64,000 nucleotides of DNA from Escherichia phage ECP2309: sequence record PP464953.1; one strand, written 5' to 3'. Under the pieces are notes generated by a model that saw nothing but the letters and a program-made list of their open reading frames with translations, searched no databases and was not told where the DNA came from. Shown piece by piece: positions 646 to 41,731 of the stretch. Position 1 is the first letter of the stretch. Each line of letters opens with the position of its first letter. The translations under genes were made by a program, and so were the position numbers.

Positions 646-657
646 AAAGATGATAAG

Positions 658-1533: not shown

Positions 1534-1551
1534 GATAATTCAGTTAAGAAA

Positions 1552-2433: not shown

Positions 2434-2462
2434 ATCTTATTACTTATGGCGGCAGAATTCAA
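2434..2462 (-). promoter_or_regulatory. sigma70-like promoter TTGAAT-N17-TAAGAT
   Basis: read on minus strand; followed by hairpin GGGCC-TTTT-GGCCC (2412-2425) and SD before ATG at 2379. Confidence 0.5.
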
Positions 2463-2712: not shown

Positions 2713-2766
2713 AGTGTTTTCCTCTCTCCTGGTTGTTGTGTGGGCACTTTTGCCCCTTCAAGATAA

Positions 2767-2795
2767 ATGTTACCTCACCCCATGGCAGATGTCAA
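2767..2795 (-). promoter_or_regulatory. sigma70-like promoter TTGACA-N17-TAACAT
   Basis: followed by hairpin GGGCA..TGCCC (2742-2756) then SD and ATG at 2712. Confidence 0.55.
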
Positions 2796-2826
2796 CGGTT
2801 TTTATAGTTCTTATATGACAGGCAGG

Positions 2827-2845
2827 CCCGGTGATTGTCTCCCCC
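2827..2845 (-). repeat. GGGAGACAAYCACCGGG motif copy
   Basis: reverse complement of the motif found on the plus strand at 12451-12468 and 12585-12603. Confidence 0.5.
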
Positions 2846-2929
2846 TGTTCCCAAGTGCCGCCCGTTTAATAAGAATAGCAAAAGGGGCCGAACAAGTCAA
2901 CCCCAAAATCAGTACCAAAACACTTTTAT

Positions 2930-3241
2930 TTATACGGTCCGATCATTGGCCTTTGTCCAGGACCTGGCGATCCGTTTCCCGGTCACCTGGAACGGAGGCT
3001 GCATTGTGTGTAATGAGTCCAGAGTAAGGGAGGACCGTTTACGGCGTATCTTCAGGATCGCTAACGTATTGTCCATCTCACGGCCAGGTCCTGGGCGGTA
3101 TGGTGTGCCTCCAGCGTTAAGGTTGATGATCTCATGTATTGAGATCCGGCGTTGTTTTGCTTCCGCATCTTTGAAGATAGCCAGCGGAGGCGCTATGCGT
3201 TGCCGATACCAATCTAAAACGGTTGGCGTAATAGCGATCAT
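2930..3241 (-). CDS. hypothetical protein
   Basis: track ORF 103 aa; start overlaps upstream stop (ATGA). Confidence 0.5.
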   Translation of the reverse strand: MIAITPTVLDWYRQRIAPPLAIFKDAEAKQRRISIHEIINLNAGGTPYRPGPGREMDNTLAILKIRRKRSSLTLDSLHTMQPPFQVTGKRIARSWTKANDRTV

Positions 3242-3429
3242 ATTTTACCCCCTATGTAGTCCGGTCGGTTTTTCTCTGTCATACGCTTAAGCAATTCTTG
3301 CATGTTGCTTATGGCTTGTAGTGTATCCTCTTCAAGGGATGAATCAAGATAATCAGGATCATTCTTCACCTTGCAATGATTATGATAACGCAGTACCGCC
3401 AGTACTTTTTTAACTTCTTCCGCTGTCAT
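3238..3429 (-). CDS. hypothetical protein
   Basis: track ORF 63 aa; weak SD. Confidence 0.45.
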   Translation of the reverse strand: MTAEEVKKVLAVLRYHNHCKVKNDPDYLDSSLEEDTLQAISNMQELLKRMTEKNRPDYIGGKI

Positions 3430-3574
3430 TATCGCGCCTAAAACAATGAGTTAATATATAACACCAGATCGCTGACTACCAGGACAACATTAATCAGCAC
3501 ATACCTAACCATAAAGGGAAAGATCGCCAACATTGCCGCCACGATCCCCATGGTAATAATTATCTTTCTCATGG

Positions 3575-3859
3575 TTAACGGTTCACGTAAGTTTTCCCGT
3601 TCACGGTTATGGGCAGATCCTCCAGGTCTGGATCTTCCTTAAGGTCGCGAGCAAGCTCACCGCACCGGATACCCTCGAATCCGTAGTACTCTGTTGTGCC
3701 GTCCTTAAAAGTTTTAGCGGCAAGGCATAAGCGATAAGTAACCCCGATTTGATTGACGGCATGAATATCCGTTAGATTAACCTCTTTTGCCAGCTCTTTA
3801 GCCATTACAGGCGCATTAAGTCCAACAACCAGGGTAACCACTGCGATCATCTTTTTCAT
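3575..3859 (-). CDS. secreted protein with N-terminal signal peptide
   Basis: MKKMIAVVTLVVGLNAPVMA signal-like N-terminus; SD AAGAGGA. Confidence 0.6.
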   Translation of the reverse strand: MKKMIAVVTLVVGLNAPVMAKELAKEVNLTDIHAVNQIGVTYRLCLAAKTFKDGTTEYYGFEGIRCGELARDLKEDPDLEDLPITVNGKTYVNR

Positions 3860-3950
3860 TGTGTCTATCCTCTTTCTGCTACGTTTAAGGCGGCGGTAAC
3901 CGCCTGTTTATGCTTTGTTGGTTAATTTTCAGGTATCTGTATAAATTAAA

Positions 3951-4166
3951 CTATGCTGTACGCTCAACTATAACAACGGTTTGGGGGATCTCCCCTTCCA
4001 CCACTAGTAAGGCCTTTTTCTGCGTGATAGATATCTTTACCCGTTGCAGCGTGGCGGTGAAGTCTTTCATTTCGTCACGCGGTGTTTTAGTGCAGTACCA
4101 GATCTCAGGCTTGCCGATCTGTAAGTTGCGTAAAAATTCCGTTTTGCCTGTTTTGTTAGTGATCAT
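3951..4166 (-). CDS. hypothetical protein
   Basis: track ORF 71 aa, colinear with neighbours; the competing plus-strand ORF 3910-4302 looks non-protein-like. Confidence 0.45.
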   Translation of the reverse strand: MITNKTGKTEFLRNLQIGKPEIWYCTKTPRDEMKDFTATLQRVKISITQKKALLVVEGEIPQTVVIVERTA

Positions 4167-4357
4167 TTGCCAACCTCACCCGATACCGTTGGAAGACAAG
4201 ATCATATTAGACATGGTTGCAATCAGGCCAATACCCAGGGCAATAACCAAGATCACTGCATCGATTAATTTCTGTTTCATGGTGTTTATTCTCTTCTGTT
4301 AGTAACCTTATTCATGGGGCCGCTACCACAGCCCCAGGGTAAGGCAGCTATGTGCTT

Positions 4358-4603
4358 TTAGTGTTTCATTCCAACCATCGCGGCACGGATCGCCGTAGTG
4401 CTGTACTTGAAGCCGTCCGGGGTCTTATCTTGTCCGGTTAGCTCCAGAAAAAGCATCATATCCCGCGCCGCATCATTACGATTAGCATTGGCGTTAATAA
4501 AGCCTTGGGCCAACCGGTACAATGACTCATCGTTATTAATCCAAAGGCTTACATTCCAATGAGTTTTGTTTTTGTAACCGTTATAACCTTTATTGCTTTT
4601 CAT
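4358..4603 (-). CDS. hypothetical early protein
   Basis: track ORF 4358-4684 trimmed to internal ATG (M28) with SD AGAGGT; the extension covers promoter and UTR. Confidence 0.55.
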   Translation of the reverse strand: MKSNKGYNGYKNKTHWNVSLWINNDESLYRLAQGFINANANRNDAARDMMLFLELTGQDKTPDGFKYSTTAIRAAMVGMKH

Positions 4604-4655
4604 GGTGTTTACCTCTTCTTTGTTCCAGGTGGCGGACCATTCCACCGCCTTATGT

Positions 4656-4684
4656 ATTATGCTTTGTAAGATGGCTGTTGTCAA
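4656..4684 (-). promoter_or_regulatory. sigma70-like promoter TTGACA-N17-CATAAT
   Basis: read on minus strand; 5'UTR hairpin at about 4628-4649. Confidence 0.55.
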
Positions 4685-4690
4685 ACTATT

Positions 4691-4870
4691 TTAACGATAA
4701 TCATCGTACGCTTTATTAACCTGGCGGATATAACATTCAAAAGCCAGATCAATAGATTTATATTCACGGATATACTCACCATAGGAAACCACATACATTT
4801 CTATAGCTTCCTCATATGCGAGGAGAATAGAATCTAAGCCTACGATCTCAGTCTTTGCAATAATAGCCAT
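4691..4870 (-). CDS. small hypothetical protein (59 aa)
   Basis: hand-translated MAIIAKTEIVGLDS...DDYR; below track size cutoff. Confidence 0.4.
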   Translation of the reverse strand: MAIIAKTEIVGLDSILLAYEEAIEMYVVSYGEYIREYKSIDLAFECYIRQVNKAYDDYR

Positions 4871-4945
4871 GATTTTTATCCTCTTTGTAGTTGGTGGGGT
4901 TCGTTGCCCCCTTTGATTTATATATTACAGTCTTATATGGTCATG

Positions 4946-5179
4946 TCAACTATTTTCAAAAAATTTTTCTGCTGTGATATTCTTCCCGGTAGGGTTCGCT
5001 ACTTTCAAAATTTTATCATGCACTGGACGCCCAAAAGAATAAGCGCCGTACACAGTAAACCAATAATCGCCGTCAGGTTGTACTATTACTGCCGCATATG
5101 GTACGCCTTTTTCGTTTTTGCTGACAAAATAGATCACGTTGCCATTAATAGCCTCGGCGCGTTTAATTTGTTCCATCAT
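4946..5179 (-). CDS. hypothetical protein
   Basis: track ORF 77 aa. Confidence 0.5.
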   Translation of the reverse strand: MMEQIKRAEAINGNVIYFVSKNEKGVPYAAVIVQPDGDYWFTVYGAYSFGRPVHDKILKVANPTGKNITAEKFFENS

Positions 5180-5234
5180 GATGATTTGCCTCTCTTTATT
5201 TTCATAATTGGGGGCCTTTTCGGCCCCGCCAGGT

Positions 5235-5519
5235 TTATTTATTGATAGCGTGCAGCGGGAAAGCTACGCCAGGTTGATAAATAACCTTTACAACCTCATC
5301 AGGACAAAAGAAGTTGCAGAACTCACCGCAATAGGCCTCATCCTCTTTCAACTCTTCATCAACATACTCAAAAAAGTAGTCGATGCTTGGATAATCCTGG
5401 CCGTGATTATAGTCAACCATCGTTAATAATAACTCTTGATCATTCCGTAGGATGTGCATACCCGCTTTTAAGTATTTTGCTTCCATTTCTACTACATTGC
5501 CAGCGGTAACAATAGCCAT
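5235..5519 (-). CDS. hypothetical early protein
   Basis: track ORF 94 aa; SD TAGGAG. Confidence 0.6.
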   Translation of the reverse strand: MAIVTAGNVVEMEAKYLKAGMHILRNDQELLLTMVDYNHGQDYPSIDYFFEYVDEELKEDEAYCGEFCNFFCPDEVVKVIYQPGVAFPLHAINK

Positions 5520-5574
5520 GATTTTAACTCCTATCTATCTGGTCAACGATTGGGGGCCTCCCCCTCGACAACTC

Positions 5575-5604
5575 TTATTATCCATATTGTCGGGAATGAT
5601 GCAA
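5575..5604 (-). promoter_or_regulatory. sigma70-like promoter TTGCAT-N18-TAATAA
   Basis: followed by hairpin GGGGG..CCCCC (5552-5564). Confidence 0.45.
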
Positions 5605-5650
5605 GTACTTCTTTAAAAATTTTTTAAGCGCCCCGTATGCCGTTGTAACG

Positions 5651-5686
5651 CCAAAATAATAAAGGCCATGCAACCGCATGGCCTTT
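5651..5686 (-). terminator. rho-independent terminator
   Basis: stem AAAGGCCATGC/GCATGGCCTTT followed on minus strand by ATTATTTTGG; a second, plus-oriented hairpin AGGCCC..GGGCCT + TATTTTG lies at 5705-5730. Confidence 0.6.
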
Positions 5687-5721
5687 ATGTGATTATATTG
5701 CTGTAGGCCCTGCCTGGGGCC

Positions 5722-6072
5722 TTATTTTGCATTCTTGCCTGTATTGCCGCCACGGTACCAGCGTTTGCGGTGAAAATGGTAATAATCACCCTCGGCATTA
5801 AACATCAGATGATTTTCAATAACCAGCTTACGAAGGTGGGCCGGATCTTGTTCCATTCTTGCCAGATTCCGGCGGCTGTTACGTAAGCGTATAAATTCCA
5901 TATTCAGGCCGTTGATTGCAGCATGGATGTCAAAGTAACCACCTTTGAGACGTTCACGCATGGCGTTAAGCTCAACACAATATACAGATTTCTCACAAAT
6001 CAAGGTATTAGCTAGGGCGCGGACCTGGGCAAGGGGGTTAAGCTCATTAAGGTAATATAGTTTGACTTTCAT
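5722..6072 (-). CDS. hypothetical protein
   Basis: track ORF 116 aa. Confidence 0.55.
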   Translation of the reverse strand: MKVKLYYLNELNPLAQVRALANTLICEKSVYCVELNAMRERLKGGYFDIHAAINGLNMEFIRLRNSRRNLARMEQDPAHLRKLVIENHLMFNAEGDYYHFHRKRWYRGGNTGKNAK

Positions 6073-6089
6073 AAAATCGCCTGCTGAAA

Positions 6090-6389
6090 TTAGTTTGAGA
6101 AAACATCGTTCACAATAGCGATCACAATGCCGCCCACCTTGTCACGGTCAGCAATGCACAAATCACCATGGATCATGCGGTAGTCTGGATGATCTTTCAC
6201 AGAATAGTCAATAAGTGTTTTCTTGTCGTCCAGCTTCGTAACTTCCATTCTCATAACGATATGAGAATCATCAAAGGCATTATTCCGAAAAGTCATAGCC
6301 TGACCGCCAGGGCACCCGGTGATCTCAACTTCCACGCCGTCTACGATCTGACCATCAAAGAAATAGAGATTATTGGCGGGTATAAACAT
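6090..6389 (-). CDS. hypothetical protein
   Basis: track ORF trimmed to ATG (M8) with AAGGAG 8 nt upstream. Confidence 0.55.
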   Translation of the reverse strand: MFIPANNLYFFDGQIVDGVEVEITGCPGGQAMTFRNNAFDDSHIVMRMEVTKLDDKKTLIDYSVKDHPDYRMIHGDLCIADRDKVGGIVIAIVNDVFSN

Positions 6390-6433
6390 GATCATTGCTC
6401 CTTTTTGCACTGATTATTTTAACAGGGTTTAAA

Positions 6434-6478
6434 TTTACTTTATTGATGGCCCTGGAGTCAAGGCCATCTAAAAATAAA
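6434..6478 (-). repeat. palindromic promoter/operator element, copy 1
   Basis: tttactttattGATGGCCctggagtcaaGGCCATCtaaaaataaa; minus-strand TTGACT inside the palindrome, N18, TAAATT. Confidence 0.7.
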
Positions 6479-6480
6479 TT

Positions 6481-6681
6481 TTACAGATCTACAATCTCTT
6501 TAATTCGTTTTACTGCTGCCTCAGCGCCTTGAGGGTAGAAATTATGATAACCAATCACGCGGGTAATACTGATCGCCGCTTGGTGGTCCTCGTAGTCGCC
6601 TTTGAATATTTCTTGACCATCAACCAGCACAGCAATTTTTTCTTCTTTTTTGAAGTTAATAACGCGGATATTGTTGCTCAT
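6481..6681 (-). CDS. hypothetical protein
   Basis: track ORF 66 aa. Confidence 0.5.
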   Translation of the reverse strand: MSNNIRVINFKKEEKIAVLVDGQEIFKGDYEDHQAAISITRVIGYHNFYPQGAEAAVKRIKEIVDL

Positions 6682-6782
6682 TTTGTTTCTCCTTTTGGAA
6701 CTTTGTCTGTGTGGTGGGGAGTGTCTCCCCGTTGATTGTTATTATCCATATTCTGGACCGGATTGCAACACTCAGGAAGAAA

Positions 6783-6822
6783 AATTTTTTGAAAAAAGTT
6801 AGGCCCCCAGGGATCGGGGGCC
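6783..6822 (-). terminator. rho-independent terminator
   Basis: stem GGCCCCC/GGGGGCC followed on minus strand by a T-run. Confidence 0.6.
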
Positions 6823-6826
6823 GTTA

Positions 6827-6946
6827 TCAGTTGCTTACAGCGATAAAATACATCCCTACGCCTAACAATATTTCAAGGGCGATGATCTCAAGCCATACCA
6901 TAACACGGCGCGCCTTATCGGTGCGGGGCTTATCCTTGGTTGTCAT
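6827..6946 (-). CDS. small hydrophobic peptide (39 aa)
   Basis: hand-translated MTTKDKPRTDKARRVMVWLEIIALEILLGVGMYFIAVSN; terminator directly downstream. Confidence 0.35.
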   Translation of the reverse strand: MTTKDKPRTDKARRVMVWLEIIALEILLGVGMYFIAVSN

Positions 6947-7165
6947 CGTCTCCCCCTTCCCTCCTGCTAGCAGTTACGTGGTTTGCAATGGCCCCCAGTA
7001 GTCCGATCACGACACACATCGCAAGAAAAATTATCTCTCCCGTTGTTCGATCCATTGTTATAAAACCTCTCAAGATCAGGCCTAAAAGTAAATCTTTCGT
7101 TATTGAATCCGTCACGCCAGGCGGCTGGCTTCAAATCTTCACTAAATGGATTAATTAACGTGGCA

Positions 7166-7537
7166 TTATTTAAACGGTTGGCCCACATATTTTCTATTCC
7201 TCTCAAATAAGCGATCCGCCTCAGTTAAACAAATCTCATGGGCGTGATCTCTGGTTTTAGCTTCATCGAAAACCTGTTGTGCAAGGCTGCAACGTAGGGA
7301 GACTGGGAGATCACTATAATAGGCGTTGACAAACGTTTGAGCGTCGTACAGGTCTGAAAATACTTTACCCTTTCTATTATTCCCCTTGTCAACAATTGCA
7401 AGGATAACCAATACAATAGTTGCAACCACCCCCAGGAAAATAGATATAATAAACCATAAAAAGGCGGATCTCCCCATCTTGCCAGCGATCCAGGCGTTAA
7501 ACAAGGCAACCAATATAGCCAAAATAATAAATTCCAT
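7166..7537 (-). CDS. membrane protein (two predicted TM helices)
   Basis: track ORF trimmed to M12 with SD AAGAGGT; hydrophobic stretches FIILAILVALF and WFIISIFLGVVATIVLVILAIV. Confidence 0.55.
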   Translation of the reverse strand: MEFIILAILVALFNAWIAGKMGRSAFLWFIISIFLGVVATIVLVILAIVDKGNNRKGKVFSDLYDAQTFVNAYYSDLPVSLRCSLAQQVFDEAKTRDHAHEICLTEADRLFERNRKYVGQPFK

Positions 7538-7601
7538 TCTATGTACCTCTTTTACAGTTCTGATCAACAATAAGGCGGCAAATATGCCGCCTGTTACCTG
7601 A

Positions 7602-7982
7602 TTAAAAATTATCGCCGTAAATCTTTCCGCTTTCTACCCATACCACCACGCGAGGCATACTATCCCACACGTCTTGTTTTAGATTGAGCGCGTGCAATTC
7701 TTCGGTGGTGCTCATACCGGGCACGGGCTGATTGTATACTGCAAAACGACCACCCGCATAATCATAGGCCAGGGTTAAATCACACTGGATCATCTTTTTG
7801 ATCATGGCATTAAGCATGGCGTTAGCCGCATACTGATCACGTTTTAAAGGCAACTCTTTGATTAGTTTGCGATAGTTTTCGATATGGTCGCACACTGTTT
7901 CACGCGGAAGATCTTTCATATCTTCACGGAATGTAACCAGGTTAAACATAACGGTGTCAATAGCCTTGGTAGTGGTTTTCAT
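7602..7982 (-). CDS. hypothetical early protein
   Basis: track ORF 126 aa; SD AAGAGGA. Confidence 0.6.
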   Translation of the reverse strand: MKTTTKAIDTVMFNLVTFREDMKDLPRETVCDHIENYRKLIKELPLKRDQYAANAMLNAMIKKMIQCDLTLAYDYAGGRFAVYNQPVPGMSTTEELHALNLKQDVWDSMPRVVVWVESGKIYGDNF

Positions 7983-8071
7983 GATTTTATCCTCTTTGTT
8001 TTGTGTGGGGCAAGACGTTTGCCCCTTGAGTTTTTAATATAGCAGGTTTTTAGATTATTGCAACACTTTAT

Positions 8072-8695
8072 TTATGAAAAACTCATCTCCCCATATTCAT
8101 CCACATCAAACCGCCAATCATTGGCCTCGATAAGGCCGATCAAGTATTCTGCGGTGAACTGTTCTAGATAGGCCTCCTCCAGGTCTACGTAAACCTTGCG
8201 GGATAGCTCCCGTACCGTCTCGGTGATCAGTTCTTCCAGGTCTTCCACTTTGTTTTCTTGTTTGGCGGTCAGATCTAGCCAAGTGGTATCAATGTACCCG
8301 CTTACAGTGTTTTCATGGCTGTAATGGCTGTACTTGTCGCGTTCAACACTGGCTGATAACTCGCCATCGTGCATTGTGCCGAACAAGTGACGAATTGATC
8401 TGAACTTGGTCAGGGCCTTGACTTTACGCAAAAATTTTTCTAAATCCACGTTTTCAGCACTGATTGACGCGCCGTCACCCTGGCACCAAAAGCCGGACCA
8501 ATGTACTTCGGTATCTTCAAGGCCGTACTCTGGAAAAACTTGTTCTTTATAGTATTCAATTACATTTTCTGCGAAAAAATCATCCCCGCTGCGTTCTTCT
8601 CTTTCGCGGACCATTTCAATGGCTTTTTCTTTTTGTTCGTCGGTTAGCACGTCGAAAGATAAATTGTAACCTGTGGTAATGTTAACGGTGGTCAT
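8072..8695 (-). CDS. hypothetical acidic early protein
   Basis: track ORF 207 aa; SD AGGAGA; own promoter. Confidence 0.65.
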   Translation of the reverse strand: MTTVNITTGYNLSFDVLTDEQKEKAIEMVREREERSGDDFFAENVIEYYKEQVFPEYGLEDTEVHWSGFWCQGDGASISAENVDLEKFLRKVKALTKFRSIRHLFGTMHDGELSASVERDKYSHYSHENTVSGYIDTTWLDLTAKQENKVEDLEELITETVRELSRKVYVDLEEAYLEQFTAEYLIGLIEANDWRFDVDEYGEMSFS

Positions 8696-8752
8696 GATAT
8701 TTTCTCCTGTTTTCTTTGTTAGTGGCGGGAAGTTTTCCCGCCTGTGTGTTTA

Positions 8753-8780
8753 ATTATACTTATTGAGATTTACTTGTCAA
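8753..8780 (-). promoter_or_regulatory. sigma70-like promoter TTGACA-N16-TATAAT
   Basis: followed by hairpin GGCGGGA..TCCCGCC (8724-8742), SD, ATG at 8695. Confidence 0.65.
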
Positions 8781-9030
8781 CACTATTTTTTAAATTATTG
8801 TGGCGCAAAATGTTTAAAATCTCCTCAACGTCATCAACACGGCGGCAATTTTTAAACGCTACCAATTGCCCCATGATTTTAATCACTGGGCGGCCTTGCC
8901 AGTGACCCTGGAGAAAGCGCGCCTTGACTTTATCGGTGGAACTATCACGCCACCAAATAGCCTTGTTGTTGCAGTAGTAAAAATTATTCAGGATAACATC
9001 AACTTTATCAAAATTTTTTAATTTACGCAT
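8770..9030 (-). CDS. hypothetical protein
   Basis: track ORF 86 aa; SD AAAGGAG. Confidence 0.6.
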   Translation of the reverse strand: MRKLKNFDKVDVILNNFYYCNNKAIWWRDSSTDKVKARFLQGHWQGRPVIKIMGQLVAFKNCRRVDDVEEILNILRHNNLKNSVDK

Positions 9031-9062
9031 GGCGTTTACTCCTTTCTCTCTTTGATGTGGTT

Positions 9063-9090
9063 AGTATAGCTAACCTGTTGACGATGTCAA
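9063..9090 (-). promoter_or_regulatory. sigma70-like promoter TTGACA-N16-TATACT
   Basis: read on minus strand upstream of ATG at 9030. Confidence 0.55.
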
Positions 9091-9210
9091 TGATATTTTT
9101 AACGCCATAAAACGGCCCTGGGCGATGTTTTCAGGTTAAGGGGGGCGATTGCATAGGTGGGGGCCTTTTTGGCGCTTACAGGGCCAACCAGGGGCGCTAT
9201 TAGTAGGATA

Positions 9211-9240
9211 GAAATAAAAAGCCCCGCACAATGGCGGGGC
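9211..9240 (-). terminator. rho-independent terminator
   Basis: stem GCCCCGC/GCGGGGC followed on minus strand by TTTTTATTTC; T-rich on plus side as well. Confidence 0.6.
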
Positions 9241-9248
9241 GTTGGTTG

Positions 9249-9446
9249 TTATTTGTCTTTATGGCGATATCGTTCTGCCTGTCGTTCACGTTCCAAAAGT
9301 AGGCCGGGCAATTTACGATCATAATGATTGCGCCAGATCTTCCCAAACCTTTTTGGCTTATTCAGTTTATTGTTACGCTGGCGGCGTTCTGGCAGCTCTT
9401 CGGAATCATGAGGGCGCTTTACAATTTTCTCGAAATTAATTTTCAT
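9249..9446 (-). CDS. small basic protein
   Basis: track ORF trimmed to ATG (M9) with G-rich SD. Confidence 0.5.
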   Translation of the reverse strand: MKINFEKIVKRPHDSEELPERRQRNNKLNKPKRFGKIWRNHYDRKLPGLLLERERQAERYRHKDK

Positions 9447-9789
9447 ATCTTCCCCCCTTGCTAACTTCAATATTGGCCTGAATAGCCCGGATGCGGCGCT
9501 TTATAACTTCCTGATCTGTGTGGTCGTATCCCCAAAAGTCTACAATTTTTGCGCCACCCGCTTCCAGGCGGTATAGTGTTTCCTGCATTTTGTAAGCCGG
9601 GATCGGTCGCGGTGTTACTTGGTCGCCTTCTTTATTTTTATACTTTATAATATAATCTTCGTTATCGTTGAATGCCCAAAATGGATATTCTGCAAGGGCG
9701 GTACTTCCTCTTTCCTTTTTATCCTGGATCTTATTTACAATTAAAGCCGTAGCAATAGCGCCAATAATAAAACTAGCCCCGCTAATCAT
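9436..9789 (-). CDS. membrane-anchored protein
   Basis: track ORF 117 aa; hydrophobic N-terminus; SD AAGGAG. Confidence 0.55.
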   Translation of the reverse strand: MISGASFIIGAIATALIVNKIQDKKERGSTALAEYPFWAFNDNEDYIIKYKNKEGDQVTPRPIPAYKMQETLYRLEAGGAKIVDFWGYDHTDQEVIKRRIRAIQANIEVSKGGRYEN

Positions 9790-35434: not shown

Positions 35435-36619
35435 TTAAGCTTTAGCCAAAATGGCGCTAAACTCTTCACCAAACTCTTTTACAATCTTCATCAGGTTTGG
35501 GTATGCTTTGATCAGCTGAGCAACGATCTTGTCACGACCTTTACCGATAAGCAAGGCATTTCCTAAGGCATTAGGTTTCATCATCGCCATAAAGACTGAA
35601 AATACAAAATCTCGGTTCTCGTCCTTGAAGTTTTCCCAAAGGAAATCGAGAAAGTTTGCCACACAGCTAACAAGATCTTCGTCGGAGATACTTGCATTTT
35701 CCATCATATTACGAATAGCGATGCAACCTTCAGATCCAAGAATCCACAAGATGTCTGGCTGTTTAGGACCTACGTATTCTTTGCAACCTCCTGCCATAAT
35801 CCGACCGATTTCCGGTAAGTTGCGTTTCTTGGTGTGGTAAGTCCAGATCTCTACCGCTGCAGTGTGACCAATAGCACCTTGCAGAAGAACACGGGCCATA
35901 GCGTCAGAAATAATACCGCTGTCAAAATCGTGCAAGATATCAGATGCAGCAACCCAAGATCGCGGTGTGGCAAAAGATGGACAATTAATCTCAGCCATGG
36001 CCTCATAATTATCGATAGCTGATGGAACTCTTTTCAGATATCCAATTACAGAGGAGTGCACCCCATTAAGGAATGCGTAGTCCTCAATAAACACCTCTGC
36101 ATTGCTTGTAACCTCTACAATGATAAAACGGTTAGCCAGAGGGGCTTCGAGCGCCGAAAGAACCGCACCATCTGTAGAACGGTTACCAGCAGCCACAAAA
36201 ACAGACCCCTTAGGGAATGCATAAGTACCGCACTTGTGGTCAAGCATAATTTGCATTGCAACCTTTTGTAGGTAGTTATCTGCATGAGTGAGCTCATCCA
36301 GAAAGATAATTCCGCTCCAGTCAGGATCCGCAGGCCAAAATTCTGGAATTGCAAACACTGTACGTGTAGTTCCATCCGCTTCTACAGGGATAGGTAGCCC
36401 AGATAAGTCGGCAGGATCTTTATCTGACAGCCGCACGTCAACAAGGTTGTCATCTCGCTCACCGAACATATTATCAGCGATCTGCTTCATCACCTGGCTT
36501 TTACCTACACCCATTGGTCCCAAAATTAGGACAGATCGGCTATGACGTTGGGCAAACTGAATAATAGCTGGCAACTCACGGACAGTGATTTGACCACTTT
36601 CGAATACGTTTCTTGACAT
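35435..36619 (-). CDS. MoxR-type AAA+ ATPase (CobS-like)
   Basis: 394 aa; Walker A GPMGVGKS; Walker B IIFLDELTHAD. Confidence 0.75.
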   Translation of the reverse strand: MSRNVFESGQITVRELPAIIQFAQRHSRSVLILGPMGVGKSQVMKQIADNMFGERDDNLVDVRLSDKDPADLSGLPIPVEADGTTRTVFAIPEFWPADPDWSGIIFLDELTHADNYLQKVAMQIMLDHKCGTYAFPKGSVFVAAGNRSTDGAVLSALEAPLANRFIIVEVTSNAEVFIEDYAFLNGVHSSVIGYLKRVPSAIDNYEAMAEINCPSFATPRSWVAASDILHDFDSGIISDAMARVLLQGAIGHTAAVEIWTYHTKKRNLPEIGRIMAGGCKEYVGPKQPDILWILGSEGCIAIRNMMENASISDEDLVSCVANFLDFLWENFKDENRDFVFSVFMAMMKPNALGNALLIGKGRDKIVAQLIKAYPNLMKIVKEFGEEFSAILAKA

Positions 36620-36888
36620 TAGTAAAAGTCCTCTACTTGTGTGTAAGTGTTTTCAAAGTTTTCCAAAACAGATATCACATCGGATCTGTCAATATCATAC
36701 GTGACTCTCCAGTTGTACGCAACCCTTTCTGCTGTTGCCTCTTCTGGCGCTAGTCGTCTGCTGGCATAAAAGAGTGTTGGAGTACACTTTCTTGCTTGCC
36801 CTCTAACTTTCCCATAATAATATCTGTGAATATCTTTGTCAAAATTTAACTCTTTTTCTGCACGAAGTTCATATTGCTGGTATAACAT
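36619..36888 (-). CDS. hypothetical protein
   Basis: track ORF 89 aa. Confidence 0.5.
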   Translation of the reverse strand: MLYQQYELRAEKELNFDKDIHRYYYGKVRGQARKCTPTLFYASRRLAPEEATAERVAYNWRVTYDIDRSDVISVLENFENTYTQVEDFY

Positions 36889-36932
36889 CTCTACTACTCC
36901 TTAAGCAGCATCCTTGCCGCCATTCCTGCCCA

Positions 36933-37313
36933 CTAAAATGCAGTCCGAATCCAGACAAGGTTCTTATCTGCCCAATCATAGAGGCAAGTCATTGCACTAT
37001 TGAATTGCTCACACGGAGGATAATCTTCTTCCATCTGACGCATAGCAGAGCCTTGTGGGTAAAGCTCCCGTGCTGCAAACCACGCGTCGTAGTCATCAAC
37101 GGTGTCGAAGTAGTATACAACATCCTCCAACTCAGGATCGAACTTTGAACTATCAGGATCCAGTTGTTCAGGGAACTTGGAGCGTAACTTGCCAGCCACA
37201 ATACTTGCCAACTCGCTAACATGCTTATTGTCCCACTCCATTAGCTTCCCGTCTTCAGTGATGCGTCCTAACCACTGATCATGAAGGTCAACTGTTGTCT
37301 TCCACCGGGCCAT
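36933..37313 (-). CDS. hypothetical protein
   Basis: track ORF 126 aa. Confidence 0.55.
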   Translation of the reverse strand: MARWKTTVDLHDQWLGRITEDGKLMEWDNKHVSELASIVAGKLRSKFPEQLDPDSSKFDPELEDVVYYFDTVDDYDAWFAARELYPQGSAMRQMEEDYPPCEQFNSAMTCLYDWADKNLVWIRTAF

Positions 37314-37315
37314 TA

Positions 37316-37573
37316 TCAGTCCACCTCTTCTTCTCGTTGTAGTTCAAGATACCCGTAGGTCTGGACATCTTCAAGGGTGTGGAACTCCCCATCTGCCGCT
37401 AATGCACGAACAACTTGGCACAAAACCTTATGAGGAACTTCATCCAGACCAAGATTCAGTGCAGGGAACACCTTATCTAAGTCAACAAAATAAATGAACT
37501 GTAGCTCACCAGCTTCAAAAGGTGTATCTTCAATAAACATCTTCTCGGCATTAGTCAAGATCTGCACTTTCAT
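37316..37573 (-). CDS. hypothetical protein
   Basis: track ORF 85 aa. Confidence 0.5.
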   Translation of the reverse strand: MKVQILTNAEKMFIEDTPFEAGELQFIYFVDLDKVFPALNLGLDEVPHKVLCQVVRALAADGEFHTLEDVQTYGYLELQREEEVD

Positions 37574-37950
37574 TATTCTACCTCCTCTTCTTTTTCTTCG
37601 GCATTAGTTTCATGGCTACCCCACTCTGGAGTTTCCACCTCGATAGTAAACTCACGCACTACACGGTAATTGCCCATGAAGCGCTCCACTTCGTCAAGGC
37701 TTATGGAGAGGCCATTGGCAACCAGGTCTGCAGCACCCTCTTCTACCAGGTAGTCCAGATTGGCTTCCAGAGCTTCAGGTTCAAACCCTGTCAATGCAAT
37801 CAGATAACCTTTCCCTTCATCAGGGAGGACAATACATCCCAACTGATTTTCTTTAAAAAGGCAGTGACCATCATTATTGATTGGGTGTTCATTGCAGTAA
37901 ATAGCTGCACGATAAGTAACTTTAGACATCGGCAAGGTCTCCTTAGGCAA
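37573..37950 (-). CDS. hypothetical protein
   Basis: track ORF 125 aa. Confidence 0.55.
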   Translation of the reverse strand: MPKETLPMSKVTYRAAIYCNEHPINNDGHCLFKENQLGCIVLPDEGKGYLIALTGFEPEALEANLDYLVEEGAADLVANGLSISLDEVERFMGNYRVVREFTIEVETPEWGSHETNAEEKEEEVE

Positions 37951-38221
37951 TTGTCATTTTACATTCTTGAAATTTTAACACAAGACGGTGATTGTGTCTA
38001 GTGTCTAAAAAGATTTTTTCAACCATCAGGCACACGGTATAACCGTCCATCTTGTTGACAACAAAATCTCCAGGGTAAGGGAGAGTGTCCCCTGGGCTGG
38101 GAAAGCATAACCCGCTCAGAAAGGCATCATCGGTGGTGGACTTAATGGATTTCCACACACTATCTGCCTGAACATTCTCACCAACATAATATACACTACC
38201 ACATGACTTCATCATAGTCAA
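37943..38221 (-). CDS. hypothetical protein
   Basis: track ORF 92 aa. Confidence 0.5.
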   Translation of the reverse strand: MTMMKSCGSVYYVGENVQADSVWKSIKSTTDDAFLSGLCFPSPGDTLPYPGDFVVNKMDGYTVCLMVEKIFLDTRHNHRLVLKFQECKMTIA

Positions 38222-39117
38222 ATCTCCGCGTAAATTAAACTGGAATCAGTATACTTCTTTAATGGGTAAATATCCTGTCCATAGATGCAATCATTAAACA
38301 CCTCATCTACCCAAAGGCTACGCTTATATCCCATCATTTCTAAAACACTCATCTCTTCTTCGGTAAACTTATCACCACTCTTGCAAGATGTCAATACCTC
38401 ATTTTGAACTCTTGCTACCTCGAATCGGTTATTGGCAATATCGCTATTGGCGATCAAATACTCACCTAGAGGGTGTGCGGCATTAAAGATGCACAGTGGA
38501 CGGCTGACGTAATAGTCTCCGGGTGTATAAAAATTGTTGAGGTCTTTCACTAGAACATTCTTATCAGTCACTTCATTTATAACATCATGCATATCGCACA
38601 TCTTTATATGTTTGAGGATTCCATCTCCCATCACAAAATAAAAACTTGCTGAGACACTTTCGGCATAGATCTTACTAGATCCGTTGTAGTTGTATTTTAC
38701 TCGGATGCTAACGGGGGTTTTTCCTGTCGCGTTAGCCATCATCCAAAGAAATGGCAGCTCATACTTCTCCTCTGAGGAAACAAAAGGTGAGGTAGCCAGA
38801 GATCGAAAACCTCCAGAGAAGTTGAAAGTTACAGAACCGCTCCGGCGGTATGATACCGCGTATTCTACTTTTATATCGACGTACCCATTGGAATAGGTGT
38901 GTCCTTCATTATCTAAATATGTCCACTTATCAGACCCAGATACCAATCTACGCTCAATAACCTTCATCACTACAGGAATTAGTGGGTTGGTACAAACCGC
39001 TTTTGAAGTAGCTTTATCATCTAAAGCCTCGTAAATTGCAGAAAGGATGTCCCCAGCTGAAAGATTGGTTGTTATGTCCTGTTTCCACCGCGTACTAAAA
39101 CTGTTAAGATTTGCCAT
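38218..39117 (-). CDS. hypothetical protein
   Basis: track ORF 299 aa. Confidence 0.6.
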   Translation of the reverse strand: MANLNSFSTRWKQDITTNLSAGDILSAIYEALDDKATSKAVCTNPLIPVVMKVIERRLVSGSDKWTYLDNEGHTYSNGYVDIKVEYAVSYRRSGSVTFNFSGGFRSLATSPFVSSEEKYELPFLWMMANATGKTPVSIRVKYNYNGSSKIYAESVSASFYFVMGDGILKHIKMCDMHDVINEVTDKNVLVKDLNNFYTPGDYYVSRPLCIFNAAHPLGEYLIANSDIANNRFEVARVQNEVLTSCKSGDKFTEEEMSVLEMMGYKRSLWVDEVFNDCIYGQDIYPLKKYTDSSLIYAEI

Positions 39118-39196
39118 AAGTAAGTGCTCCTATGTTAGTTTTCTTTCGAATGGGTGCACTATATTGTGGAGTTAGAGTAAAGTCAACACGTTTTTG

Positions 39197-40237
39197 ATGT
39201 TGACATCTGTTGAGACAATTGATACGATTTCTTCACTTACAGAGCACGAGAGACGACGCATGAATCTTGAAAAATATTATACACCAGAAGAGTTAGAGCG
39301 CTTGCTCAAAAAATATAGACGCAAACAGAATAACGCACGGAAACGAGATATAGAGTTCGACCTGTCATGGGAAGAATACCTCCTATTTGGTAAAAAACTT
39401 TTAGGAGATGGAGTATGCGACTATACCCTTATACCTTTTGACATGCACACAGATGAAAACGGGCTGGGGAATCCTTTCTACCCATCTTTGGAGCGTATAG
39501 ATGATGAAGGTCCTTACGCAATTGACAATTGTTGTGTGGTAGGGTTGAGGTGCAATGCTCTGAAAGACTGTCTGGTAGATAAAAAGACTGCAATCCTGAT
39601 TAAAGACAAAACTGATCGAAAAATTGTCCAGCAGATGATGCTCCACCTGAGTGAAGAGCGTATGGAGAAGTTGAAAGGTGATTATACTTTTGAAGATTTC
39701 ATCTTGCAATACGGGACAGAAGAAGATAAACTAGCACTATTTGACGAAGAGGAAGAAGATATGTCACCGATGCAGGATTTTAAAAATTTCATGGCTGATC
39801 GTGCAGCCAACAAACACATTTCAGACATCGTAAACGAGACTGTGACAGAAGAAATTGAAGAACAGACATCTGAAGAGGAAAAAGAGCCTCAGGTGGTTGA
39901 AGAGGAGATTGCAGAAGAGGTTCCTGCACTGCCTGATGATGTTGAGATTGCTAAGGCTTACACTTTCTATTGTCAAACGTTCTACGATGCAGGTATGAAA
40001 GTTGACCTGTCGTTCAGCCAATTTAAGAGTTCGTATATTCGCAAATGCTGTGCTTTAACTGGTGAACGTCTCGGAGCTGGACTTAAACCACTGTTGGTGA
40101 CCGACTGGAATAAAGGTTTCACTAAAGGAAACTTTATGGTAGTATCTCCAATTATGGAGAAAGCTATGACAGATCTTATGAAGACCACCCGCATGACAAT
40201 GACCGAGTTGGCAGGTATTTTCAAACACGTTAAATAA
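39197..40237 (+). CDS. hypothetical protein, acidic C-terminal half
   Basis: track ORF (TTG at 39194) moved to the adjacent ATG; first gene after the strand switch. Confidence 0.55.
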   Translation: MLTSVETIDTISSLTEHERRRMNLEKYYTPEELERLLKKYRRKQNNARKRDIEFDLSWEEYLLFGKKLLGDGVCDYTLIPFDMHTDENGLGNPFYPSLERIDDEGPYAIDNCCVVGLRCNALKDCLVDKKTAILIKDKTDRKIVQQMMLHLSEERMEKLKGDYTFEDFILQYGTEEDKLALFDEEEEDMSPMQDFKNFMADRAANKHISDIVNETVTEEIEEQTSEEEKEPQVVEEEIAEEVPALPDDVEIAKAYTFYCQTFYDAGMKVDLSFSQFKSSYIRKCCALTGERLGAGLKPLLVTDWNKGFTKGNFMVVSPIMEKAMTDLMKTTRMTMTELAGIFKHVK

Positions 40238-40270
40238 TGACAGGGGCCATTGGCCCCTTCTGGAGTTTTA

Positions 40271-41731
40271 ATGGATAGCAGAAGTTCAGAAATCATTGCC
40301 TCACAGAAAGATGATGCCCTGAGAATGTTGCAGGCTGCACGTATGTATCTCCTTGAAAAGCTGCCGTTTTATGGCACACTGCTGTCAGGATTGCAGTTCG
40401 TAGAAAACCACACATGGTGCTCCACCATGGCAACCGACCATAAACGCATCTATTACAGCCCTGAGTTCATTATGGGATTGGCTGATGAACGCAAGGTTAT
40501 TCTTAAGGCTTCTCTAACTGACGAACAGTTTGAGATGGCTGAGGTTTTCTATTCCCTCAAATCTGTGAAAGAGGTGGCTTTTCTTCTGTCACACGAGGTG
40601 GGGCATATTATCTGTGATCACCTGGTCCGTGGTAAAAGCTTCGAGCCGGAACTGTTTAATATTGCTTGTGATCATGTTATCAACACAGGTCTTGTGGTTG
40701 ACTTTAGCAAGCCTCCCTGTGTTTTCTTCCCGAAGGGGAAAAGCACTACGTTCGTGAAAGGTAAGCCTTTTGGTTTCTTAGCCAGCTGCTACTGCGACAT
40801 GAGGTTTCATGGATGGATTGCTGAGAACGTCTATGCGGTTCTTGATAAGCAAAGAGATCAGAATAACGGTAAAAGTAAGAGCGGTAAAGGTGAGAACTCT
40901 CAAGGGGATAAGCGACAAACCGATGATCACATGAGTGGGAACGGTGGCACCAGCGATGATCTTGGAAAGGCTATGGGGTATGATCAGCCACAACCTGTAA
41001 TCAGCCAATCTGATAAAGATCAGGCCATGCAAGACTCTGGTGACATGCTGGAAGCAGCAATGCAAGCTTCCGGAGGTCGTTGCCCCGAGGCGGTGCGTGA
41101 GTTTGTCAAGAACAGAGGTAAGCCTGTAATCAACTATATAGACATCATTAAGCAACGCATGTTGTCTAAACGAAAGGCCGAACTGACCTACAGAAAACCT
41201 GGTCGCCGATCTGGGTCTTTGACCAGCACAATGCGAAAAGTTGGGGCTATAAACAAGAACCAGCACGTTATTGTTCCTGGTCGTAATCCGGAAAACACCA
41301 TAGATATTGTGGTAGCTTTAGACGTTTCTGGCTCGATATCTCAAAGAACTTTAAAGAAAATGTTCAATGAAATCACCGGATTGTGCAATCTGTATAAAGA
41401 GTTTAAGGTTACAATGTTCTGTTGGTCAACTGAAGTCGGAGAGGTTAAAGTATATACTCGCGGCAACATAGACGAAATGATCAACTATGAGGTCCACTCA
41501 ACATGGGGCACAACAGCTGCTTGCGTGTTCGAGTATCTGGATGCCAACATACCAAATGCAAAAGATGTCATCGTCCTGACCGACCTATACTTTGAGCATA
41601 ACTTTGAACAAAAGGCTGTTGACAACAAGTGGAAAAAGTACGATACTTTATGGGTTCTCACCGAAGGGTATAATAAAAATTATATCCCTAGCTTTGGTAA
41701 AACTGTGGAATTAATCGAGTACGCTAAGTAA
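40271..41731 (+). CDS. vWA-domain protein with N-terminal HExxH metallopeptidase-like region (CobT-like partner of the AAA+ ATPase)
   Basis: SHEVGH (HExxH); MIDAS-like VVALDVSGSIS; track TTG start moved to ATG (M8) after SD TGGAG. Confidence 0.7.
   Translation: MDSRSSEIIASQKDDALRMLQAARMYLLEKLPFYGTLLSGLQFVENHTWCSTMATDHKRIYYSPEFIMGLADERKVILKASLTDEQFEMAEVFYSLKSVKEVAFLLSHEVGHIICDHLVRGKSFEPELFNIACDHVINTGLVVDFSKPPCVFFPKGKSTTFVKGKPFGFLASCYCDMRFHGWIAENVYAVLDKQRDQNNGKSKSGKGENSQGDKRQTDDHMSGNGGTSDDLGKAMGYDQPQPVISQSDKDQAMQDSGDMLEAAMQASGGRCPEAVREFVKNRGKPVINYIDIIKQRMLSKRKAELTYRKPGRRSGSLTSTMRKVGAINKNQHVIVPGRNPENTIDIVVALDVSGSISQRTLKKMFNEITGLCNLYKEFKVTMFCWSTEVGEVKVYTRGNIDEMINYEVHSTWGTTAACVFEYLDANIPNAKDVIVLTDLYFEHNFEQKAVDNKWKKYDTLWVLTEGYNKNYIPSFGKTVELIEYAK

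Follow-up and report, generated by a model that had tools for sequence, protein, structure and literature searches.

The MoxR-class AAA+ ATPase and the vWA/HExxH protein encoded on opposite strands of Escherichia phage ECP2309 (PP464953.1; the window analysed here comprises 64,000 nucleotides) are a genuine pair, a widespread two-gene phage module, and their separation is a derived state. The two genes probably still provide two subunits of one machine, an ATP-gated processing or remodelling factor that represents the Vequintavirus MoxR + DUF2201 module, with gp24 + gp25 of phage N4 as archetype. Both genes are already annotated publicly ('MoxR ATPase' in rV5, 2006; 'putative metallopeptidase' in BASEL phages), and the pair type has been described by comparative genomics (PMC7824862, PMC4193335). 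That this rV5-like phage of E. coli has them on opposite arms of a shared promoter region is a genuine, if minor, curiosity: a known module in rearranged form.

Table 1 Features of the ATPase–vWA locus in window coordinates
Feature	Position	Strand	Remarks
MoxR-class AAA+ ATPase gene	35435..36619	minus	394 aa; rV5 ORF4; N4 gp24 homologue
Walker B codons, IIFLDE	36293..36310	minus	ATPase residues 104-109
Walker A codons, GPMGVGKS	36497..36520	minus	ATPase residues 34-41
Six small or unknown genes that precede the ATPase in the leftward unit	36619..39117	minus	rV5 ORF5-ORF10
89-aa ORF, last of the six	36619-36888	minus	overlaps ATPase start (TAATG)
Promoter-like site, TTGACA-17-TATTAT	36814..36842	minus	11/12 matches; inside the 89-aa ORF just 5' of the ATPase; rV5 'P4'
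Back-to-back sigma-70-like promoters	39158..39228	both	between ORF10 and ORF11
Leftward promoter, TTGACT-17-TATAGT	39186-39158	minus	
Rightward promoter, TTGACA-17-TACGAT with TG	39200-39228	plus	rV5 annotated promoter P11
Srd-like putative anti-sigma factor gene	39260..40237	plus	ATG at 39260; heads the rightward unit, directly 5' of the vWA gene
G+C-rich hairpin, AGGGGCCAATGGCCCCT	40242..40258		in the 33-nt spacer between Srd-like gene and vWA gene
Zincin-like (DUF2201_N) + vWA (DUF2201) protein gene	40271..41731	plus	486 aa; rV5 ORF12/13; N4 gp25 homologue
HExxH codons, HEVGH	40592..40606	plus	residues 108-112; SHEVGH, residues 107-112
MIDAS DxSxS codons, DVSGS	41321..41335	plus	residues 351-355; T414 and D438 are the other MIDAS residues

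Identity of the two proteins

The translations confirmed both open reading frames and the motifs assigned to them in an earlier sequence-only reading. The minus-strand protein is supported as a MoxR-class AAA+ ATPase. It matched phrog_1297 in a PHROG search (E 2e-110), and homologues at 33-35 % identity (E 1e-44) carry AAA_3/AAA_5 Pfam domains. NorQ (E 1.6e-8) and CbbQ2 were the best solved matches of its AF2 model (pLDDT 85.9) in Foldseek, and Midasin was the best PDB match to the family profile. The window protein itself stayed below every Pfam AAA cut-off (AAA_5 16.7 versus 22 bits), thus the MoxR assignment rests on homologues and fold. It groups with MoxR proteins and not with an unrelated AAA+ clade; the 'CobS-type' label of the sequence-only reading is unsupported, since no match to a CobS family was obtained and the partner does not resemble CobT. 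Across 98 sequences, G34, G37, K40 and S41 of the Walker A motif were invariant and G39 was present in 97; D108, E109, N146 (sensor 1), R164 and R220 were likewise found in all 98.

The plus-strand protein is supported as an HExxH and vWA/MIDAS protein. It scored well above the Pfam cut-offs for DUF2201_N (98.7 bits, cut-off 23.2) and for the VWA-like DUF2201 (43.7 bits, cut-off 26.4), and structure comparison showed the vWA fold to be real, with the NorD VWA domain among the matches. H108 and H112 were present in 98 of 98 sequences and E109 in 97; H117, R120, D134 and N138 were each found in all 98. The MIDAS residues were similarly conserved (D351, S353 and S355 97/98, T414 95/98, D438 93/98), all exceptions being alignment gaps. 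The Pfam scores and the near-invariance across 98 homologous pairs confirm that the motifs of both proteins are not chance occurrences. For the N-terminal domain, no solved structure was matched by profile or was present among the listed fold hits; judged by the Pfam name, the invariant HExxH and the predicted order of helices and strands, it is probably a peptidase. At ~140 aa the vWA domain is minimal, and its secondary structure has no obvious long finger comparable to the pore plug of the NorQ system (PMC9976466), so its docking on the ATPase may differ from that system. Of the two candidate starts, the mechanical TTG (40250) and the ATG at 40271, the ATG is favoured, because GGAG lies 5 nt 5' of it and the homologues share the same MDSRSS start. 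In the type record of rV5, the vWA gene carries a 1-nt insertion at codon 417; should this be genuine and no sequencing error, the vWA domain would not need to be intact in the laboratory.

Pairing and separation of the genes

The expectation that such genes normally sit side by side was borne out by the loci containing both: in 90 of 98, the ATPase gene is followed immediately downstream, on the same strand, by the vWA gene, the gap having a median of 68 bp. These loci include phage isolates, N4-like and others, as well as contigs of metagenomic phages and of MAGs. The same order was observed in ~70 actinobacterial chromosomes, scanned separately from the 98 loci, and in a 578-kb megaphage contig, where ClpX, ClpS, ClpP and HSP20 genes surround the pair. 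The module occurs in Streptomyces chromosomes, and the pair counts 27,607 cluster representatives. Neighbouring genes in these contexts include rIIA/rIIB and those for an Srd-like anti-sigma factor, a thymidylate kinase, an HD phosphohydrolase, dCTP deaminase, thymidylate synthase and a 5'-3' exonuclease.

In the window, the two genes lie on opposite strands, 3,652 bp apart from start to start, which agrees with the split of 3.6 kb first reported. Of the separation described then, by a strand switch and eight unknown genes, the strand switch stands; the genes number seven, six on the minus strand and the Srd-like gene on the plus strand, and two of them have tentative database names (Srd-like anti-sigma factor, 'fucosyltransferase'). 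The six leftward genes had no Pfam match and fell into PHROGs of unknown function. The Srd-like gene matched PHROGs of the Srd and sigma-70 decoy families, in agreement with the rV5 and BASEL annotation. The promoter-like sites between ORF10 and ORF11 appear to head two divergent units, the leftward carrying the ATPase and the rightward the vWA gene; bidirectional promoters that lie between gene 10 and gene 11 have been reported (PMC3606486). According to the rV5 record, the ATPase is co-transcribed with rIIA/rIIB. The number of promoter-like sites in the region did not exceed that in shuffled sequences (16 versus 13.8).

Among the loci compared, the split order was found only in the window, rV5, AlexBoehm, BIS47, GAP31 and Av-05, which represent four genera of the Vequintavirinae (Vequintavirus, Mydovirus, Seunavirus and Avunavirus). 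In each of these genera the Srd-like gene is immediately followed by the vWA gene. In Certrevirus CR9 and the unclassified Vequintavirinae LTH01 and A73 the genes are adjacent. The split is derived and the side-by-side order ancestral; one rearrangement in the common ancestor of the four genera probably moved the vWA gene across the bidirectional promoter region. Since the vWA gene came to lie on the other promoter arm, both genes are still near one control region, with starts at ~1.1 kb and ~2.5 kb from it, and are probably co-made. Strong purifying selection continues on both, with pN/pS values between window and AlexBoehm of 0.018 for the ATPase and 0.034 for the vWA gene. Phage records with at least 95 % identity numbered 117 for the ATPase and 118 for the partner, essentially every Vequintavirus record, and between the split genera the two proteins diverged in a matched manner (50-53 % versus 46-50 % identity). 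The pairwise identities of ATPase and vWA protein correlated with r = 0.973 (Mantel 0 of 999), which reflects a shared history and not interaction, as plain vertical inheritance also gives co-divergence.

Proposed function

In a mechanism drawn by analogy with NorQ/NorD (PMC9976466, PMC13036017), the ATPase would form a MoxR-type hexameric AAA+ ring, as suggested by its family membership. Through the MIDAS metal site in its small C-terminal vWA domain, the partner may hold a specific client protein by an acidic residue, the ring would use ATP hydrolysis to remodel partner and client, and the N-terminal zincin-like HExxH domain most likely cuts the client. The module would thus be a dedicated factor that works in infected cells ahead of late gene expression, and no virion component.

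For group 2.2 jumbo phages, in which MoxR is accompanied by a vWA domain fused to an N-terminal metallopeptidase, the same architecture, Iyer, Anantharaman, Krishnan, Burroughs and Aravind (2021) proposed from comparative genomics a role in virion assembly, by analogy with Acidianus two-tailed virus (PMC7824862). The p618 (MoxR)/p892 (vWA) pair of this virus, cited in PMC7159879 and PMC7824862, is the only viral MoxR-vWA couple with experimental support and is needed for tail development. The core-gene status in N4-like phages would also fit a basic life-cycle role. A chaperone-protease that folds or assembles tail or head parts and trims structural proteins is nevertheless unlikely: the pair stands with early or middle and not with structural genes in every context examined, and N4 gp24 and gp25, two of the 14 N4-like core genes, are middle transcripts (PMC4193335). 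The text of the rV5 paper names neither the ATPase nor the vWA protein among the virion proteins, yet assembly factors need not be virion-borne.

Both genes are located in sigma-70-type early units, the vWA gene directly after the anti-sigma gene and the ATPase gene co-transcribed with rIIA/rIIB, and this setting, as well as the Clp and HSP20 genes of the megaphage contig, would suit an early-made protease for host takeover or counter-defence, whose MIDAS captures a host protein to be inactivated by ATP-driven unfolding and cleavage. Possible targets would be a transcription, envelope or immunity factor. We consider this quite unlikely. Counter-defence genes are usually variable and lineage-specific, whereas this pair belongs to the N4-like core, is abundant and extends into Streptomyces chromosomes; defence-system models gave no significant match (best E 0.003).

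A cofactor-insertion chaperone, not a protease, on the model of NorQ/NorD, CbbQ/CbbO, CoxD/CoxE or the chelatases, would open a phage metallo-enzyme, e.g., of nucleotide metabolism, and load or exchange the metal with HExxH as metal carrier. The nearest solved structures, NorQ and CbbQ2, stem from systems with such tasks (PMC9976466, PMC13036017), and metal-dependent enzymes of nucleotide metabolism are often encoded nearby. The HExxH with its invariant Glu (97/98) is however the signature of a hydrolytic zinc site, NorD, CbbO and CobT lack an HExxH domain, and no single candidate client is common to all phages with the pair, which makes this function very unlikely. That the proteins ceased to cooperate after the split and took up separate jobs, their resemblance to a pair being historical, is the least probable reading: adjacency, which usually signals joint function, has been lost, a promoter-like site of its own (36842-36814) precedes the ATPase and the rV5 record combines a frameshifted vWA gene with an intact ATPase, but all four split genera kept both genes with matched divergence, no more than 2.5 kb from a shared bidirectional promoter region, with all catalytic and MIDAS residues intact and pN/pS of 0.02-0.03.

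Comparison with known systems

As a probable ATP-gated two-subunit factor, the window pair resembles several described systems to different degrees. In E. coli RavA/ViaA, too, a MoxR ATPase has its vWA partner encoded adjacently, but this system belongs to another MoxR subfamily, lacks the HExxH domain and was absent from the top Foldseek matches of the ATPase model. The Acidianus pair, likened by its published description, comes from an archaeal virus and has no peptidase domain. In NorQ/NorD (iron insertion into nitric oxide reductase) and CbbQ/CbbO (Rubisco activase), a MoxR hexamer acts with one vWA/MIDAS adaptor, which holds on to carboxylates at the client surface (PMC9976466, PMC13036017). 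These systems differ in sequence (16-21 % identity), in their unrelated clients and in a vWA domain that is larger and bears a finger to plug the pore, and, compared with NorQ and CbbQ, residues ~270-394 of the phage ATPase form an additional helical region at the C-terminus.

The MoxR and metallopeptidase-vWA proteins of group 2.2 jumbo phages share the two-protein architecture (PMC7824862), and the jumbo phages RaK2, 121Q and A4 were among the matches of both window proteins. The window phage is a 136-kb phage with genes split across a strand switch in an early and not structural context. Homologous to the window pair are gp24 (AAA ATPase) and gp25 (vWFA) of N4, core genes of the Schitoviridae. 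In the N4-like phage Jura, the window ATPase matched the gp24 region (tblastn E 4e-21), and the family profiles detected gp24 (4e-59) and gp25 (3.5e-56). The N4-like genes differ in being adjacent on one strand, and their products are shorter, with 352 and 380 aa, and share only ~22-27 % identity. N4-type gp25 has the DUF2201_N + DUF2201 architecture of the window partner, and gp24/gp25 are pre-late genes (PMC2784036, PMC4193335), as is likely for the window pair.

The gene pair in phage ECP2309

A MoxR-class AAA+ ATPase (the ATPase) and a protein with the domains DUF2201_N and DUF2201 (the partner, encoded by the vWA gene) are present in the window. Both open reading frames had been placed correctly in the sequence-only reading, and its motifs were recovered: GPMGVGKS (residues 34-41) and IIFLDE (104-109) in the ATPase, HEVGH (108-112) and DVSGS (351-355) in the partner. 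The genes lie on opposite strands, as had been noticed, with starts 3,652 bp apart and seven instead of the claimed eight genes in between. The start codon of the partner is the ATG at 40271, preceded by GGAG 5 nt upstream, and the same first residues occur in all close homologues. Over the 7 kb around the pair, identity was 100 % with Escherichia phage ECP2303 and 97 % with rV5 and with over 100 further genomes of Vequintavirus. The minus-strand gene corresponds to ORF4 of rV5, annotated as 'MoxR ATPase' since 2006, and the plus-strand gene to ORF12/13; their names in the BASEL phage AlexBoehm are 'ATPase (MoxR)' and 'putative metallopeptidase'. Overall, the observation and most of its interpretation were right.

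Features of the pair locus in Escherichia phage ECP2309 (PP464953.1) and of related loci in other records
Feature	Record	Position	Strand	Remarks
rIIA and SleB-type hydrolase genes	PP464953.1	32516-34995	minus	3' of the ATPase gene, same leftward unit
ATPase gene	PP464953.1	35435-36619	minus	394 aa
89-aa ORF	PP464953.1	36619-36888	minus	overlaps the ATPase start (TAATG)
Promoter-like site, rV5 'P4'	PP464953.1	36842-36814	minus	within the 89-aa ORF, just upstream of the ATPase gene; best such site of the region
rV5 ORF10 counterpart	PP464953.1	38218-39117	minus	
Back-to-back sigma-70-like promoters	PP464953.1	39158-39228	both	plus-strand site corresponds to the annotated P11 of rV5
Inverted repeat	PP464953.1	39182-39204	minus	GTCAACAC...GTGTTGAC; 8-bp arms
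Srd-like gene	PP464953.1	39260-40237	plus	39194-40237 for phrog_3118
Hairpin	PP464953.1	40242-40258		AGGGGCC-AAT-GGCCCCT; 7 bp, G+C-rich; followed 12 nt later by the vWA start codon
Partner (vWA) gene	PP464953.1	40271-41731	plus	486 aa
Interrupted vWA gene of rV5	DQ832317 (L001)	7756-9217		ORF12 and ORF13
Actinobacterial pair	L103-L170	~5900-8800		Streptomyces and relatives
Pair in a phage-like contig	L173, JGI 3300046660 contig Ga0495625_0000006 (578 kb)	1-9600		
Radical SAM gene	L038, metagenomic phage contig	2904-3980		in the vWA gene's usual place; contig too short to show a vWA gene further on

Properties of the two proteins

In a single-protein sequence search against solved structures, the ATPase obtained P-loop-level matches only and the partner none. 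The ATPase stayed under every Pfam AAA cut-off (AAA_5 16.7 bits against 22; AAA_3 not listed). It has thousands of homologues, and those at 33-35 % identity and beyond carry the MoxR-type models AAA_3/AAA_5; a Streptomyces relative reached 41.6 bits with AAA_5. K40, D108, E109, N146, R164 and R220 were invariant in all 98 sequences. From their positions, K40 would belong to Walker A, D108 and E109 to Walker B, N146 (in AAGNR) would be sensor 1, R164 (in PLANRF, at the position of the MoxR 'ALLDRF') the arginine finger and R220 (in ATPRSW) sensor 2. The secondary-structure string of the predicted structure (pLDDT 85.9, built from 73 homologues) was read for the feature of the MoxR/helix-2-insert clade, beta-hairpin inserts before Walker B and before sensor 1. 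In this string, strands 75-81 and 84-90 come after the P-loop helix and before the strand of Walker B; strand 138-146 is preceded by short strands at 128-133. Foldseek ranked NorQ chains and CbbQ2 at positions 1-15 (E 1.6e-8 to 1e-6; target-normalised TM 0.56-0.67). Like the Rubisco activase CbbQ2, NorQ is a MoxR-class protein acting with a vWA partner. A grouping with an unrelated AAA+ clade, the outcome named as speaking against the assignment, was not observed. With the family profile, the best match in the PDB was Midasin (3.5e-11). The ATPase is thus of the MoxR class, as Walker A and B, sensor 1, the arginine residues and the nearest solved structures all fit, while the Pfam cut-off was missed.

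The partner matched two Pfam families, DUF2201_N (named 'putative metallopeptidase'; cut-off 23.2 bits, score 98.7) and DUF2201 ('VWA-like', 43.7 bits), and its structure was predicted with a pLDDT of 82. In the HExxH motif, H108 and H112 were present in 98 of 98 sequences and E109 in 97. H117, R120, D134 and N138 of the N-terminal domain were invariant as well; H117 and D134 are candidates for the third zinc ligand. The model of this domain comprises three short strands, the HExxH helix 99-118 and a long helix 126-144 with D134, a predicted order that fits a zincin layout. Neither the fold-match lists nor the profile search against the PDB matched the N-terminal domain to a zincin or any other solved structure, hence we infer the 'peptidase' designation only; the sole profile match was the vWA strand-1/MIDAS region. 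A literature search for biochemical data on DUF2201_N family members retrieved none. The C-terminal domain has a Rossmann-like vWA fold, and the MIDAS residues D351, S353, S355, T414 and D438 were invariant in alignment A3 and present in 93-97 of the 98 sequences, the remainder being gaps. The domain is a minimal vWA without an obvious pore-plugging 'finger' in its secondary structure.

Occurrence and gene order of the module

Profiles of both proteins were scanned over every fetched locus and were both nearly complete in 98 loci, several of which are copies of one phage. In 90 of the 98 the vWA gene lies directly 3' of the ATPase gene on the same strand (median gap 68 bp, largest 818 bp). The two genes form a pair. 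Among N4-like and other isolated phages, this order was present in every record listed for both searches (VL3, nACB1, D468, Rexella and PhAPEC5) and also in the N4-like phage Jura; a 578-kb megaphage contig (L173) has it too. Seventy-seven of 80 bacterial and archaeal contigs shared it, including about 70 chromosomes of Streptomyces and related genera. The partner family comprised 27,607 cluster representatives at E <= 0.001.

Several loci presented variants of the module. The conserved actinobacterial pair, found in about 70 chromosomes, has a longer partner (about 600 aa) with an extra N-terminal region. The phage-like contig L173 clusters the pair with genes for ClpX, ribosomal protein S21, HSP20, ClpS and ClpP; its ATPase has an insertion of about 110 residues between the P-loop region and Walker B. 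In a metagenomic phage contig (L038) a radical SAM gene comes after the ATPase gene, where the vWA gene is usually found; the contig stops before a vWA gene could follow.

The gene order breaks only in four genera of the Vequintavirinae. With opposite strands and 3.5-4.3 kb between the genes, the split was found in Vequintavirus (the window, rV5, AlexBoehm and one metagenomic contig), Mydovirus BIS47, Seunavirus GAP31 and Avunavirus Av-05. Within the same subfamily, Certrevirus CR9 and the unclassified phages LTH01 and A73 have adjacent genes. All outgroups are adjacent as well; therefore adjacency is ancestral and the split had a single origin.

Both genes were retained in all four split genera, with all catalytic and MIDAS residues intact. 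In the phage collection, the ATPase was detected at >=95 % identity in 117 records and the partner in 118. Within Vequintavirus, the ATPase gene had a pN/pS of 0.018 and the partner gene one of 0.034. Between genera the two proteins diverged to a similar extent: among the split genera the ATPase sequences shared 50-52 % identity and the partner sequences 46-50 %, against 35-37 % and 35-39 % with the adjacent Vequintavirinae. Over all pairs, the pairwise identities of the two proteins correlated with r = 0.973, a value reached by 0 of 999 permutations; this shows a common history in which neither partner was replaced, and by itself is no proof of interaction.

In the type record of rV5 a single inserted T, at codon 417 and near gene nucleotide 1249, divides the vWA gene into two reading frames, and the end of the vWA domain with the MIDAS residue D438 is lost. 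The gene is intact in the window, in AlexBoehm, in the metagenomic contig (L006) and, judged by full-length tblastn matches, in every other Vequintavirus record listed. The insertion is either an error of sequencing or a natural mutation in a viable phage.

The control region between the genes

The layout is the same in all split genomes. On one arm, the divergent control region is followed by the Srd-like gene, coding for a putative anti-sigma factor, and the vWA gene, which starts about 1.1-1.3 kb off; the opposite arm has several small genes ahead of the ATPase gene, which starts about 2.3-3.1 kb off. As the promoter scan overall was not above chance (16 sites versus 13.8 in shuffles), the promoter sites in the table rest mainly on position and prior annotation. 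The opposed -35 hexamers of the back-to-back promoters make an inverted repeat, which may have an additional role as a regulator binding site. The 33 nt that separate the Srd-like gene from the vWA gene consist largely of a hairpin, which could act in attenuation, RNA processing or RNA stability. The overlap of the 89-aa ORF with the ATPase start suggests translational coupling.

A single inversion with breakpoints at the divergent promoter region and between the two genes was considered as the origin of the split. In blastp comparisons of adjacent (CR9, LTH01) with split genomes (GAP31, window) only the ATPase, the partner, an HD phosphohydrolase and a SleB-type hydrolase matched. The HD phosphohydrolase, upstream of the ATPase, had 55 % identity between CR9 and GAP31, the SleB-type hydrolase 40 % between LTH01 and the window. 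The genes just 3' of the partner in the adjacent and the split type had a weak profile match (hhalign probability 46 %, E 2e-4). One inversion would be compatible with the topology and with the kept order of HD phosphohydrolase and ATPase; the small genes on either side have diverged too far to prove it.

Downstream of the ATPase gene are rIIA (660 aa, HATPase_c_3) and a SleB-type cell-wall hydrolase gene. These neighbours recur in Av-05; in BIS47, rIIA is accompanied by an endolysin gene instead of the SleB-type one.

Annotation of the locus in public records

PHROGs assigns the term 'HNH endonuclease' to the vWA-metallopeptidase family (phrog_1314) and to the Srd-like family (phrog_3118). 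Pfam detected nothing HNH-like in either, and DUF2201_N plus DUF2201 in phrog_1314. The wrong name is present in many records, including ECP2303 and the RefSeq entries of rV5, BIS47, GAP31 and CR9, and is spreading for the vWA-protease through phage genome records. PHROG 13164, to which the 89-aa ORF belongs, is labelled 'ATPase'; the ORF is far too short for one, and the label is probably a carry-over from the neighbour. rV5 ORF10, a 'putative alpha 1-3 fucosyltransferase' in many records, had no Pfam or NCBIfam match and only a PHROG of unassigned function. Sixteen 'Campylobacter phage' records (MG065644-MG065682, host Campylobacter jejuni) have about 97 % identity to E. coli Vequintavirus over the 7-kb query and encode the ATPase at 99 % identity; their host assignment looks doubtful.

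Proposed mechanism and timing

The NorQ hexamer binds one NorD, and ATP hydrolysis remodels a NorD linker; activation needs an intact VWA domain and surface carboxylates of the client (PMC9976466, PMC13036017). By analogy, the phage ATPase would form a hexameric ring, the partner would hold a client by one of its acidic residues through the MIDAS site, and the complex would be remodelled as ATP is hydrolysed. Because the HExxH domain is added in the partner, the most likely outcome would be cleavage of the client by this predicted domain.

Virion assembly, host takeover and cofactor insertion are rival candidate roles of the module. For jumbo phages, Iyer et al. 2021 suggested a function in virion assembly and processing (PMC7824862). 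The neighbours of the pair are early or middle genes (rIIA/B, the Srd-like gene, genes of nucleotide metabolism and replication), the N4 counterparts are middle transcripts (PMC4193335), and neither ATPase nor partner is among the rV5 virion proteins named in the text of the rV5 paper, which argues that the module acts inside the cell ahead of late gene expression. Literature searches on rV5 with MoxR, on DUF2201 and on Vequintavirus transcription yielded no functional or expression data.

The split itself might be functional rather than neutral, a reading that we regard as very unlikely. With the vWA gene following the Srd-like gene in the immediate-early operon, and the ATPase gene farther along the opposite operon under an internal promoter of its own, the phage would be able to adjust dose or timing of each subunit separately. 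The vWA-protease could then bind a host client first and become active only once ATPase has built up. If true, the module would be a timed host-takeover switch.

A defence system was rejected because PADLOC gave no significant match for ATPase or partner (best E 0.003) and the phage genome is virulent; NCBIfam and PADLOC scans of both proteins contained nothing meaningful. A cobaltochelatase was dropped together with the earlier label 'CobS-type', since Pfam and NCBIfam detected no CobS or CobT family and the partner carries DUF2201_N.

Comparison with known systems

The MoxR plus DUF2201 module is among the most widely conserved phage gene pairs without a tested function, occurring as 2 of the 14 core genes in N4-like phages (PMC4193335), in rV5-like phages, several jumbo phages and many bacteria. 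The rV5-type split demonstrates that the pair can persist without side-by-side order. As each subunit is in its own operon, deletion or tagging is possible without polar effects on the other, and E. coli K-12 is a host of AlexBoehm and other BASEL phages, making the split type a convenient natural system. Beyond these points no new biology is added, because both genes and the pair type had already been recognised.

The ternary conflict systems of MoxR-vWA type (VMAP, iSTAND, FtsH, beta-propeller; Kaur et al. 2020) have a third, conserved component next to the pair, whereas the loci examined here showed no shared third gene adjoining the phage pair. The Streptomyces ATPase obtained 21 bits with the bpMoxR model, below the cut-off of 27. 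The group 2.2 jumbo phages encode the same MoxR ATPase and a vWA protein with N-terminal metallopeptidase (PMC7824862); comparative genomics had already shown this architecture, and the module is therefore known. Both window proteins are homologous to the archetype of the module, N4 gp24 ('putative ATPase, AAA') and gp25 ('vWFA') (PMC2784036, PMC4193335), and N4-type gp25 matches DUF2201_N (1.3e-86) and DUF2201 (1.9e-46) like the window partner. The N4 genes follow each other on the same strand, ATPase first, whereas the window pair is 3.6 kb apart on opposite strands. The window pair is thus a rearranged member of a widespread known module; new is a split that is limited to four Vequintavirinae genera, kept under strong selection, and that leaves each gene on one arm of a shared bidirectional control region.
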